Origin: Chrysomallon squamiferum
Taxonomy: Eukaryota > Animalia > Mollusca
Reading direction: 5' to 3'
NCBI GenBank assembly: GCA_012295275.1
Contig: CM022671.1
Location: forward strand, 6,634,001-6,698,000
DNA: 64,000 nt
In this document: piece after piece, positions 33,494-59,411 of the stretch
Layout: each line of letters starts with the position of its first letter
Numbering within the stretch: position 1 is the stretch's first letter
Position numbers and translations under genes: made by a program
Notes under the pieces: generated by a model
Databases searched by the model: none
What the model was told of the DNA's origin: nothing
Seen by the model: only the letters and a program-made list of their open reading frames with translations

Positions 33494-36400
33494 TCAGACG
33501 TATTTAAACTCATCCATGTCTTTGAGAAACTTAAAAAGAACAACTTTAGGCACTGGGCCGTTGTAGTCGTCAATCATCTTGGCAATCTGGTTATGACGTG
33601 ATTTCTGGTGTTGTGCAAAAGCCTCTTTCAGCTTAAGTTCGTTGTACAGTTTCCGCACAACCTCTACACAGGCTGGGTCGCTGCGTCCGTAGTTTGCCTG
33701 TAGAAACAGAAAAATCTCTTTAAAAATCTCACACAGCAACTGAGTGACTAACGTGTATATAATCGATATCTACTCTCTGTCTTTCTGTCTGATTCTGTCT
33801 GTTAGTCTACAGAACAAATCTGATATATCTAATATTAAAGCTGTTAATGTTAAAAATCATTACCTATTAATATTAGCTAAAACTAATTATCTTTTAATAT
33901 CTGATAATATTGTGTGTTTCATTATTCACTGTCTTTAGTTGATGAAATGTTTACAGTTTACCAAAACGAGTCTGTACCTCTGTGTACATTTTTGTTTTAT
34001 TTCTTTATCGTATAGATAGACACAGATACAGATATTGTCTGGACTTACCTTCAGAATTTCAAGCTGCTTTTCTGAACATCTGGCCAGTGCTTGGCCGAAC
34101 AACCACGTACATTTTCCTTTTTCTACGTCTGTCCCAAATGTCTCTCCAAAGCAATCCATGTAGTCATTCTACAAAACCAGAAATAATTATCTCAAAATCA
34201 ACACACACACACACACACACACACACACACACACACACACACACACACACACACACAGAGAGGCTGACAGAGAAAAAATAGATAAATTATTTTTTTACGT
34301 TGCAAATTCGTAGTCATAATAATATGATTTACATGTCTATTACAATATATATCGGAATATGACAATTTAATATTTTATTTTCATTTATTTATATTTTATA
34401 TTTTCATTTGCTTTATGTATATAGACGCAGACAAACATATACATATGCTTAATATGCAGACAAACAGACACTAACCTGTTCTTGTCGCCAGCAACCAATC
34501 ACTTTGCAGATTTCTTGAATACTTTTATAATCCTTATCATCTGTAATTCCTGACTGAAATCAGATTTGTACCTGTTATTGTTTCAGCTCTCTCTCTCTCT
34601 CTCTCTCTCTCTCTCTCTCTCTCTCTCTCTCTCTCTCTCTCTCTCTCTCTCTCTCTCTCTCTCTCTAACACACACACACAAACACACACTAACACATTGA
34701 GAGGATCATTAATGTTTGGTAACATACAAAATAAAAAAAATGCATGCGCACACAAAACAAAGCCCAGAAAACATAAATTATGATGATAATAATCATTAAA
34801 ATAATGATGTTTCTTAATAGGAATATAAACAGTTGTAGGAGTTACAGTAGTAGTAGTAGTAATAAAAATAATGACGATGATCATAAAAATTAGTGAAAAA
34901 TAATAAAGAAATGTGACAAGGTTGCTGGGTGTTAACAATTTGGTGGTGTGTAAATTGTGGGAATATACATGACTTCATCTTTTCTCTTACAGTATTAGGC
35001 TGTTCCTGCCCACGACAGGCTTGCTTCAGCCTTTAATAGATGTACATTCATACTGTCTGCAGACAGAGAAAAAGAATACTTTCATTATATAGACAGACAA
35101 ATGGACACAGATAACAAGAACAGAAAAGACTGACAGATAGAGAGATAACCAGATATCAGACAGACAAACATATACAGAGTTATGCAGACACTTACCAGCA
35201 TCATGGCTATGACGAAAGGCAGACACATGTAAACTTCAGTCTTGATTCTTGTCAGCGTCTCGCACTTTTCTGTGGTCATATCCTTCCAGTCTGATATCAG
35301 AACCTGACGAAGAGCTAGAAACTCCCAGAACATGACCTGAAACACAGACCCAATTCATTTAAATATAATAAAACAATTATGATTGTACATACATAAATTC
35401 AGACAGTCAACCATACACATACATGCACATATACATACATATATACATACATATATACAAACAGACTGTCGTATATTCATTCATACATACATACACATAC
35501 ATACATATATACAAACAGACTGTCGTATATTCATTCATACAGAATACACAGACACAGGTATCGACATTCGGACAGTATACAAGACTTACACAAGACTTAC
35601 AAAATCAGACATGTATAAGACAGAGAGAATATTCAAATCCTAAACCACATAAATATATGCATACACACAAACACAAGATGTAAAACAAAAAACAGTTATA
35701 CTCACATCTCCGAAGAAGTCGAAGAGACGAACATAGTAACTTTTCTTCCCAAAATATTTCTTCATTATCTTGTAACAACAACAGTAATAAAACCCACTGT
35801 CCAAATAGACAATATCTCCAACACCTTCCTGAATAATAATAATAATAATAATAATAATAATAATAATAATAATAATAATAATAATATACTGATAATAATT
35901 CTTAAAGTGTAAAATAAATAGTTAGAACACTTACAATGGAATGCCATGTTGGTGCACCGTCTCTCACTTTCTTTCCGTCGAACATGTCGTCACACATTAG
36001 CCCGGCATTCTTGTACTAAAACACAAAATCGAAATTATGACACGGTTTAAACGATTATATAAAATTCCTTTCTTGTGAAGGATTTTATGTACTGTATAAC
36101 CATAACGTTAATAAATACAAAATTAAAATATGTTACTAAATGACATCAGGAAATACTGATTTAACATATTATAGTCCGGGTTTATAATGACGTCATACAT
36201 TATTATTATTATCGATGATGATCACCTACAAAATATTTAGTACGTTTCTGCAAATAACCCATTTCGTTCTCGCGAAATTGCGCGATACTTTCTGGGCGGT
36301 CGCCAGAGAGCATAAAAACAGCAAAGATCGTTGTTCAAAAATTGCCTTCTGTCGGTCCATTTGAAAAATCTTTTTAAAGAAACTTAGTTCGATGACGTAG

Positions 36401-37561
36401 CATACATATCTTGCTTCAATTTTGCTTTCGATTTTAGAATATTGGTCAACGAGAAGTGTATGAAATTTTTGATGAAAACATCTTTCTGGAAACCTCAGCA
36501 GTCATCGATTACTGGAAAAATCGTAAGTGAGTCCAGCAGTCCAAACATGTTCCTGCTTATTAACTACTATTCTGCTTAATTTCAAAAAAGTTGCGAGCGA
36601 TGATTCTATGGTTGCGAAAACGCAATGCGGACGCAAAGCCCGCCCTTCAGAGAAGTCATTTCAGGTTACGTGACGTCAACGTCGCTTTCTGATGGACAAA
36701 CATTGGTGTACCGTAAATTTCAGCTAATTAGTTCGATTAATGAATTAATTAAAATTCATAAATATCAACAACTTGCTTAAAAATACAGTACGTGTTTAGA
36801 ACTCATAAAAAGCTTTATGTTGATGTATAATACATGTATAGTGACGGAAGCTTTATGAGATATTGTGTTTATGCTGCAACATGACTGAAACGCATCACAC
36901 GTTCTGTGTAGATTATGAAGGAAAAATGGCAGCAAATTTTATCCCGATAAAAATTCGTAACTTTTTTCGTGTCAATGCTATTAAAGAAATCTTGGTGACA
37001 TTTTAATATGATTTTTTTTTATTATTTTTTAATTTTTTTTGCTCTTTCTAATGATATATAATGTTTCAGAAAAATATGAATTTTGATAATTTTGTCACAT
37101 ACCTATAGTTTAGTAAGAGGACATTTTCCAAGAAATAGTTTTTATATTATTTCAGTTTGCAACACGTTCCCATATACACTGAAATGAGCCAGTAGTAAAC
37201 AAGTAGGTATACAAATAATGAAAATCTTACTATCTCCGCACACCAGCCTAGAACACGAGCCTCGTGAAGATCTTTTTCCGAACAGTTTGGATTCATCGCC
37301 TTGTACAGATCGACAACCATCTGACCGTAGAACGGATACACCTTCGTGTTTGTGTACTCGAAAGCCTGACAAAAAATATAAAGAATATCATTCTGTGTCC
37401 ATAACAGAAAGGCCTTTTGGTTGTTCTATTATTATTATTACCTTTTTATACTCGTTTTTCGCTTCTCTGACGTCATCTCCCATCATTTCCGGACTGAAAA
37501 GGTAGTCTTTGAGAGTCACAAACACCTCCCGAAACTTCTTTGTATCCTCCTCGGTTGCCAT
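33494..37561 (-). CDS. FPPS-like (trans-IDS fold) protein copy A, 333 aa; candidate IDS-derived terpene synthase
   Basis: Eight phase-0 exons: 37561-37442, 37365-37231, 36015-35935, 35828-35706, 35336-35196, 34553-34476, 34168-34049, 33697-33494, with no stops. Motifs ARVLGWCAEI, FARM DDMFD, KTEVY, SARM NDYMD, GTDVEKGKCTWL and NYG...VRKLYNELKL are FPPS-family landmarks. Confidence 0.93.
36241..37110. mobile_element. ~870-bp insertion in intron 2 of copy A; putative non-autonomous element
   Basis: Absent at the homologous site in copies B and C (aaatatttag|tgagagg). Flanked by a TTTAGTA direct repeat (36236-36242, 37109-37115). Terminal inverted similarity is weak, and the insert is richer in CpG than its surroundings. 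Confidence 0.6.
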
Positions 37562-57600: not shown

Positions 57601-59411
57601 GTATTTAAATATTATACATACATTTATATATACATATATACATACATACATAATATATATATATATATATATATATATATATATATATACATATATACAT
57701 ACATACGTACATACATACATCCATACATGCTTACATACACAAACACAAAATATACATATATACATAAAGACGGAAAGAAAGAATGAATGAATGAAATAGA
57801 GAAGAAAATAAGTAAAATAAAATAAAAGTGAAAGCAATGTTCTAAATAATAATGTATAATTATTAGTCGAAGCAATTTCAGTCAATGTAAAAGTAAAGTT
57901 TAAACTAAAATATAAATGTACGTAAATAGTGTTTTTTAACTCGAAATAATAATAATGATGATGATGATGATGAAGATGATGATGATGATAATAATAATAA
58001 TAATAATAATAATAAAATAATAATGATGATGATGATGATCATAATAATGATAATAATAATAATGATGATGATGATGATGATGATAATGATGATAATAATA
58101 ATGATAATGATATGATGATGATGATGATGATGATTATGATGAGCATAATGATGATAATAACTTACACAAGAGTGCCAGGCTGGTTTGCCATTTCTTGTCG
58201 GTTTTTTTTCCAGTGTATCCATGGCGACCAAAGCAGAATTCCTCCACTGAAACGCAGACGAGATCAAAACTGTACAGTTACCATAACAACACAACAGATT
58301 AACTATTTCACAATTACCACAGACACAGAAGAGACAAAAACAGAGTACAGACGACAAAAAGTATTCCATAGTTGTTTATATATCAGAATTCGCGCGGTTC
58401 ATACAAAATTCGCGAGCAGTGAAAAGTTAAATAAATGAGAAAATAAATCTTACGATCTGCATGCACCAGCCAAGAACGTGCGCGAGATGAAGCTGTTTCT
58501 GAGAACACTGAGGACTACACGTCCTGTACATCCATACAACCATCTGTCCGTACACCGGGTCAACCAGCCTGTTAGTATACTCCAACCCCTGAAGTAGTAG
58601 TAATAATAATAATAACAATAACAATATCAATATCAATAACAATAATAATAATAATAACAATATCAATAATAATAATAATAATAATAATAATAATAATAAT
58701 AATAATAATAATAATAATAATAATAATAATAACAACAACAACATAATAATAATAATAATAATAATAATAATAATAATAATAATGATAATAAATAAATAAA
58801 TGAAACAATATTATATTTAAGAAGGATGATGATGATGACATAATAATAATAATAATAATTAATGCTAATTTTAATCTTTGATAAACTGTCAGTAAGACGT
58901 TCGTCCATCTTAGTTGTTGTTTTTAACTTTCTTTTTTAACAACAACCAAAATAATTTCATTAAATAAATAAAAAATTTGTATTTAGGTAACAGTTGTGGT
59001 TTTCTTTAATACAGCATCGAAATAACCTTGAATATTTACTTTAAGGCAGCACTGAAAATAATGGTAAAAAGTGTTCTTTAATATTCTTTATTGTACTGAA
59101 AACAAAACGGTAAAAGTATTCACTAACACCATACTGAAAATAAAAGGTAAATATTTAATCCTGCACAGAAAATAATGTTAACGTTCTTTTTTGTTGATAC
59201 TGTGCTGAAAATAACTGTATTTATTTATGACTGTAATATGTACAGGGATAAGTGTGAGTCCGTGAATGTGTGTGCGTGCGTGCGTTGTTACCTTTCTGTA
59301 ATCTTCTCTTGCTGCAGCGACATCATCACCCATGAGCTCGGGGCCGACGACAAAGTCCAGCAGAGTCGTCAACACTGACCTAAACTGTTTTACTTCAGCC
59401 TCTGTTTCCAT
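54677..59411 (-). CDS. Divergent FPPS-like protein copy D, 333 aa, with both Asp-rich motifs degenerate
   Basis: Exons 59411-59292, 58588-58454, 58246-58166, 57573-57451, 57044-56904, 56253-56176, 55607-55488, 54880-54677 (identical sizes to A-C, no stops). FARM position reads VAMDTLE, SARM reads QNNYLD, C-terminus EEMKEIKTI*. Confidence 0.9.
54990..55417. repeat. (TAT)n followed by a (TAG/CAG)n trinucleotide tract
   Basis: Low-complexity run in intron 7 of copy D. It is the source of the poly-L/S/T ORFs in the track. Confidence 0.9.
56332..56892. repeat. ~560-bp (GA)n microsatellite
   Basis: Almost pure GA run (one interruption at 56461) filling most of intron 5 of copy D. Confidence 0.97.

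Follow-up and report, generated by a model that had tools for sequence, protein, structure and literature searches.

Can a farnesyl diphosphate synthase (FPPS) turn into a terpene synthase (TPS) in an animal other than an insect? This question is raised by a 64,000-nucleotide stretch of the Chrysomallon squamiferum genome (GenBank assembly GCA_012295275.1, contig CM022671.1, positions 6,634,001 to 6,698,000, forward strand), hereafter the window, in which four tandem intact genes, A to D, lie on the minus strand at 33494..59411. Isoprenyl diphosphate synthases (IDSs) and TPSs share Mg-triggered ionisation and differ in whether isopentenyl diphosphate (IPP) captures the cation. Since A, B and C carry several marks of TPSs (loss of the IPP motifs, changed residues at positions -5/-4 before the first aspartate-rich motif, an ND-type second aspartate-rich motif and loss of R60), we consider it rather likely that they work as TPSs, ionising farnesyl diphosphate (FPP) or geranylgeranyl diphosphate (GGPP) and releasing a cyclic or acyclic terpene or a terpene alcohol.

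In the part of the literature surveyed, IDS-derived TPSs come from insects and rust fungi, and corals, mites and springtails use canonical TPSs. A literature search found no report of a molluscan or other non-insect animal IDS-derived TPS, nor of this gene family; most subscription papers lay outside its coverage, and an existing report is possible. Whereas the principle of IDS-to-TPS conversion is known from insects, neither the snail lineage nor the family nor a copy of the D type seems to have been described.

Four intact tandem genes of FPPS descent

The genes are given below with their two aspartate-rich motifs, the first (FARM) and the second (SARM).

33494..37561, minus strand: gene A, 333 aa, FPPS-derived; exons 37442-37561, 37231-37365, 35935-36015, 35706-35828, 35196-35336, 34476-34553, 34049-34168, 33494-33697; FARM DDMFD, SARM NDYMD
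40291..44205, minus strand: gene B, 333 aa; exons 44086-44205, 43514-43648, 43079-43159, 42475-42597, 41978-42118, 41406-41483, 40944-41063, 40291-40494; FARM DDLLD, SARM NDYMD
47832..51923, minus strand: gene C, 333 aa; exons 51804-51923, 51523-51657, 51052-51132, 49925-50047, 49575-49715, 48930-49007, 48375-48494, 47832-48035; FARM DDLFD, SARM NDYMD
54677..59411, minus strand: gene D, 333 aa, divergent; exons 59292-59411, 58454-58588, 58166-58246, 57451-57573, 56904-57044, 56176-56253, 55488-55607, 54677-54880; FARM MDTLE, SARM NNYLD (first Asp lost in both)

Rebuilt from the window, every copy has eight coding exons of 120/135/81/123/141/78/120/204 nt, amounting to 999 coding nt without an internal stop, just as a preliminary description of this DNA had claimed. 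All introns are GT..AG (28/28) and of phase 0, and every exon is read in frame 0. Intron lengths differ several-fold between copies, whereas the exons carry no indel, and no stop or frameshift occurs in any of the 32 exons.

Family and fold were assigned through exon-based searches and the closest relative rather than through full-length A to D. The exon-based searches matched FPPS structures in the PDB, weakly for exons 2 and 5 and not at all for exon 6. A HMMER search with an exon 8 profile returned 79 proteins, two of them at E 1e-10 or better, a number that does not bound the range of the family, as relatives more than 50% identical sit behind one representative. The best match (P0001) was XP_041350511.1, an FPPS-like protein of 333 aa from the peltospirid vent gastropod Gigantopelta aegis, with 201, 209, 213 and 172 of 333 residues identical to A, B, C and D (60, 63, 64 and 52%), against mostly 24-33% for the other matches. 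It has the altered motifs of A to D, and all five proteins agree at 130 of 333 positions. Because this independently annotated protein aligns gap-free to each copy over 333/333 residues, a chance origin of the array is excluded.

PF00348 is the sole Pfam match of the G. aegis protein (119.5 bits), and its AlphaFold model (pLDDT 87, from a 21-row alignment) has a predicted FPPS fold, with a Foldseek TM score of ~0.9 and a VIA Z of 39.0 (root mean square deviation 2.0 over 325 residues) against FPPS. Compared with class I TPS chains, the model gave Z of 13-15, reflecting a shared alpha fold that is uninformative on function. The PDB matches of the exons, the Pfam match and the predicted fold uphold the FPPS origin proposed at the outset, and the suspected non-insect host agrees with a closest protein from G. 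aegis, where an FPPS-like gene lies at a matching locus. With 60-64% identity at that locus, the sequence by itself makes a related and likely neomphaline snail other than G. aegis very likely as the host.

In a 16-row tree, A to D and the G. aegis protein grouped together with 100/100 support, and a long branch (1.48) led to them; D, which has a long end branch, was sister to A-C (97/89). The tree was built without characterised TPSs or full-length molluscan FPPSs, and the root inside the five-protein clade depends on the long branch. The second match (P0002), an ENA fragment, is nearer to the G. aegis protein (40/56) than to A-D (27-33/56). Single-exon word-indexed homologue searches passed none among 16, 40 and 23 candidates, locus scans of metagenome and viral sequences found no relative, and exon 8 met only FPPS-fragment-like clusters in a protein atlas. 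Two further FPPS-like proteins are separate from this family: P0078, in which both Asp-rich motifs are absent, and P0014, which is without IPP-binding motif 1 (IBM-1) and KT and keeps its FARM.

The IPP site and the allylic site

Residue numbers are human ones, equal to the numbering of Rebholz et al. minus 14, and were placed by alignment to canonical-looking matches and PDB chains. All the IPP-diphosphate contacts listed in PMC10108439 are replaced in the four copies. As seen in IBM-1, K57 and R60 have become Tyr and Tyr in A-C (KVYPFYG) and Asp and Tyr in D (LVDPVYG), and the R60 position is Tyr in all five family members. Position Q96 is Lys in A-C and Arg in D; R113 is D, D, E and N in A, B, C and D (the RR after the FARM reading RD, RD, RE and RN); F239 is R or Q; and an acidic stretch takes the place of the C-terminal basic tail. 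The expressions for IBM-1, 2, 3, 4 and 6 and for the SARM had no match in any of the four copies; A and C do match IBM-5, though only through an expression in which the Lys is optional. The aromatic pocket-floor pair F98/F99, at -5/-4 before the FARM, is now small (A/G, A/G, G/G and S/A in A to D).

On the allylic side, the FARM DDxxD is intact in A-C and in the G. aegis protein and reads MDTLE in D. The first SARM Asp is replaced by Asn, giving NDxxD in A-C and NNxxD in D. The five proteins do not vary at R112, K200, Q240 or the last SARM Asp, position 266 is basic (K or R) in each of them, and the GQxxD helix is remodelled and reads WEF..[RC]QD-like. The motif readings of the preliminary description (IBM-1, Q96, RR, F239, the tails, and the FARM and SARM of A-C) thus recur in the rebuilt proteins; motif expressions and alignments agree with its claim of lost IPP contacts, and the allylic and Mg contacts that it held to be retained in A-C (DDxxD, NDxxD, R112, K200, Q240 and K/R266) are present. 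It had not mentioned the small -5/-4 residues, the short loop after the SARM with T at K257, the remodelled GQxxD helix, the MDxxE and NNxxD of D, or the G. aegis relative.

Placed among the known classes, A to D show the IPP-contact substitutions and non-aromatic -5/-4 residues of IDS-derived TPSs. None has the canonical FPPS combination of IPP motifs, both DDxxD motifs and aromatic -5/-4 residues. The triad of canonical class I TPSs (coral, sponge, mite and bacterial type), (N/D)Dxx(S/T)xxx(D/E), is not found either: A-C and the G. aegis protein read ND-x-x-D-x-x-x-E, with D at +4. Breakage of both FARM and SARM, as in inactive FPPS-like proteins of the EneoA type, occurs in D only and not in A-C.

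Comparison with known enzymes

A link between loss of the IPP motifs and TPS function has been drawn, the residues that come in at IBM-1 being aromatic or acidic (Rebholz 2023, PMC10108439); stink-bug TPSs have Trp at the R60 position (PMC10108439). Non-aromatic -5/-4 residues mark insect TPSs and are required for the activity of MhTPS (Lancaster 2018, PMC6140472). In a fungal GGPP synthase (GGPPS), an R-to-P change at the R60 equivalent switches IDS to TPS activity, and an ND-type SARM is present in active fungal IDS-like TPSs (PMC7484799). De novo terpenoid synthesis has been shown by labelling in some molluscs (PMC7143877).

The IDS-derived TPSs of insects (Murgantia MhTPS, Phyllotreta TPS, Ips GPPS/TPS) resemble the snail genes in their FPPS ancestry, the aromatic or acidic replacement of the basic IBM-1 residues, the non-aromatic -5/-4 residues, tandem expansion and, in some, an altered SARM. 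In contrast, A to D are molluscan, form their own long-branch clade with the G. aegis protein, have K/R at Q96 and a short post-SARM loop, and are known here from sequence. The Melampsora fungal IDS-like TPSs likewise have ND at the start of the SARM and have lost the R60-equivalent Arg; unlike A to D they are GGPPS-derived, with S at +4 (an NSE triad) where A-C have D. Canonical animal FPPSs (human 2RAH, chicken 1FPS, leaf-beetle PcIDS1) have PF00348 and the fold in common with the family, via the G. aegis relative, but identity is ~30% and the IPP site, pocket floor, lid loop and tail are replaced. The termite and cockroach FPPS-like clade (EneoA) is also a tandem-derived FPPS paralogue, with FARM and SARM broken as in D; it is, however, a separate lineage, and A-C keep the FARM. 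The G. aegis protein itself differs from A to D in keeping K at K257, and a single copy is annotated on the contig that probably holds its gene. Since known IDS-derived TPSs share the altered pocket floor and the ND-type SARM as well, the likeness to these enzymes is stronger than had first been stated.

Divergence among the copies

Protein identity is 83.8% for A-B, 84.7% for A-C and 88.9% for B-C, and ~49% for D against each. The ratios of nonsynonymous to synonymous divergence (dN/dS, NG86) are 0.63 (A-B), 0.55 (A-C) and 0.32 (B-C), with Fisher p values of 0.08, 0.009 and 2e-5; for D against A-C they are 0.13-0.16, with dS saturated. Differences among A-C cluster along the gene (runs test, p 0.001), a mosaic similarity of the kind that gene conversion or unequal crossing over would leave. 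Variable sites among A-C make up 36/100 positions in exons 3, 5 and 6 and 33/233 elsewhere (p 1.5e-5, the exons having been picked after the data were inspected), and these three exons presumably encode helices lining the pocket. Exon 5 of A (35196-35336) differs from B and C at 24 and 26 of 141 nt, far above the level elsewhere in the gene, and its GQxxD-equivalent helix no longer has the Asp, which may reflect a change of the pocket or conversion from an unseen copy.

RNA from A, B and C

Four sequencing runs (one organism code) were compared with window positions 40200-43000, which hold B exons 4-8, at 85% likeness; one of them, X2, was not counted as independent evidence, since it may be related to the source of the window. 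In the RNA run X1, all five B exons were covered, with zero depth in six intron bins and repeat-derived or low depth in the others. Among the exonic variants listed, 21/21 match A and/or C, three of them A only and two C only. One 122-nt contig is identical to B across B-specific sites. Another, of 412 nt, has on exon 5 20 differences, exactly the count of A, and resumes on exon 4 five letters on, thereby spanning an intron of >350 nt; this crossing is seen in the contig pieces and is not among the joints listed. The A- and C-specific variants, the B-identical contig and the intron-crossing contig therefore show transcripts of A, B and C in a single run, from one study. Runs X3 and X4 gave no exon cover in window positions 40200-43000; contigs cannot show absence, hence no claim on tissues is made.

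How the copies may act

If A-C act as TPSs, a Mg cluster held by DDxxD and NDxxD, together with R112, K200, Q240 and K/R266, would pull the diphosphate off the allylic substrate. Without an IPP site the carbocation could not be elongated, the opened pocket floor would let a C15-C20 chain fold, and the aromatic side chains gained at K57 and R60 (both Y) and on the GQxxD helix (W/F) might steady the cation until deprotonation or capture by water. Since the pocket-floor residues are very small, GGPP would be as plausible a substrate as FPP, and each of the three recent copies probably makes a product of its own. D, which has lost both main Mg ligands (the first Asp of the FARM and of the SARM), probably serves as a partner that is non-catalytic or altered, and EneoA is its best model. 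In the earlier interpretation, FPPS origin, IPP loss and allylic and Mg retention in A-C hold up, and the TPS reading of D, with its MDTLE and NNYLD like those of inactive EneoA, does not.

More tentatively, deep-sea neomphaline snails may have evolved their own FPPS-derived TPS family, independently of insects and fungi, in which A-C, their pockets diverging, make different sesqui- or diterpenes and the Mg-less D modulates; this wider scenario seems plausible without being the expected outcome. Terpene synthesis by A-C would mean that TPSs arose here apart from those known in insects and fungi; it would carry the IDS-to-TPS route into Lophotrochozoa and point to unreported terpene chemistry in vent snails. 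The wider scenario, if true, would for the first time open de novo terpene cyclisation in molluscs to genetic study. The family would also be a natural series for what the switch needs (G. aegis with K257, A-C without it, D without Mg ligands), and the four intact genes and the RefSeq relative are open to direct assay.

Several points weigh against TPS action. We know of no terpene from these snails. The terms terpen, prenyl and isopren have no occurrence in the main text of two G. aegis genome papers. A canonical FPPS kept elsewhere in the genome is indicated only by the annotation of G. aegis, and purifying selection is not significant between A and B (p 0.08). In the active site, Asn stands in A-C for the first SARM Asp, which is a Mg-B ligand; the K257 position is T in A to D and K in G. 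aegis; the post-SARM loop is short by 5 residues; and the basic K/R at 96, unlike the aromatic residue of stink-bug TPSs, could bind some anionic acceptor. In leaf-beetle IDS the K257 equivalent helps to force the ionising conformation (PMC10396970), and in the fungal study a SARM change alone gave no TPS activity (PMC7484799). The termite FPPS-like EneoA, with FARM and SARM broken, had neither IDS nor TPS activity (PMC13143122), and per-sequence TPS predictions have been cautioned against (PMC10108439).

Alternative explanations

The whole family might be non-catalytic, binding prenyl diphosphates or serving as dimer partners that tune canonical FPPS/GGPPS. D, lacking the first Asp of both motifs, is yet intact and constrained by its low dN/dS, termite EneoA is inactive (PMC13143122), and A-C have lost K257 and the first SARM Asp. 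Against this stand the intact DDxxD of A, B, C and G. aegis and the residues invariant in all five proteins, and the recent triplication with variation in the pocket exons fits product diversification better. We regard the idea as unlikely for the whole family and favour it for D alone.

It is likewise improbable that A-C are prenyltransferases with a new acceptor, coupling two allylic substrates irregularly or handing the chain to a nucleophile other than IPP. In favour of this, the allylic site survives beside an acceptor site rebuilt in a form conserved across species (Y/Y, K at 96, acidic at 113), and misaligned acceptors have been suggested to yield irregular coupling (PMC10108439). The site has, however, lost net positive charge and gained bulky Tyr residues, and occlusion fits this better than a second diphosphate.

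A still chain-elongating IDS, making GGPP or longer products with K/R96 compensating for the lost basic residues, seems very unlikely. Position 96 is indeed basic, and non-aromatic -5/-4 residues turned MhFPPS into a GGPP synthase (PMC6140472), but K57, R60, R113 and the basic tail are all gone, replacement of KKxR killed MhFPPS (PMC6140472), and a separate GGPS1 is annotated in G. aegis. Decaying duplicates or an assembly artefact, suggested by the near-identical tandem units, their mosaic similarity and the A-B dN/dS not significantly <1, are already largely refuted and scarcely credible, given 32/32 undamaged exons beside introns of widely different length, copy-specific alleles in RNA and a gap-free relative in another species.

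Upstream elements

A 26-nt palindromic element with E-box-like arms directly precedes a TATA-like box upstream of A, B and C.

38447..38472, minus strand: palindromic element upstream of A, conserved in A, B and C
45554..45579, minus strand: same element upstream of B
52379..52404, minus strand: same element upstream of C

Besides these three sites there is one weak match elsewhere, with 0.05 expected by chance; none was found near D. The element may drive cell-type-specific expression, and A has a probable non-coding first exon, ending near 38358. Upstream of A there is also a frame that looks like a targeting peptide; it was dismissed because B and C do not have the ATG, which moreover lies upstream of the TATA-like box.

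Neighbouring genes and the G. aegis locus

The window also holds a THOC5-like gene at ~7300-18600 (minus strand; weak Pfam match) and a bZIP gene at 19523-22001 (plus strand), which we take to be XBP1, a 281-aa open frame at 21156-22001 presumably being the C-terminus of its spliced form; the protein atlas yielded nothing of use for XBP1. Exons at ~750-4700 (minus strand; no Pfam match) presumably belong to PRODH. Exon-like frames of a coiled-coil gene lie at 26658-30775 (plus strand), two of them without a Pfam match; its end resembles a Rab11-FIP binding motif.

In G. aegis, PRODH, XBP1 and THOC5 share contig ctg598 with one FPPS-like gene (PMC7895826 supplements), and the locus is therefore conserved between the two, as judged by gene content; we infer that XP_041350511.1 is gene ctg598-1.9-1. 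Three FDPS-type genes are annotated in that genome (PMC7895826 supplements). Among these, ctg903-0.0-1 is assigned to KEGG K00787, is most similar to genes of scallop and of another peltospirid, and was detected by peptides in the proteome (PMC7895826); by annotation it fits a canonical FPPS kept elsewhere in G. aegis. Besides GGPPS (GGPS1), the annotation includes the mevalonate enzymes MVK, PMVK, MVD and IDI1 (PMC7895826).

Contig ctg598 also carries a SEC14-like retinal-binding protein, two aldo-keto reductase-like genes and four SLC6 transporters (PMC7895826 supplement 6); the lipid carrier and the reductases could be tailoring partners of the candidate TPS or be there by chance. At the edge of the window, an open frame at 63796-64000 (plus strand; no Pfam match) that leaves the window may begin a G-protein-coupled receptor, and in the G. 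aegis annotation an FMRFamide-receptor-like gene is numbered adjacent to the FPPS-like gene.

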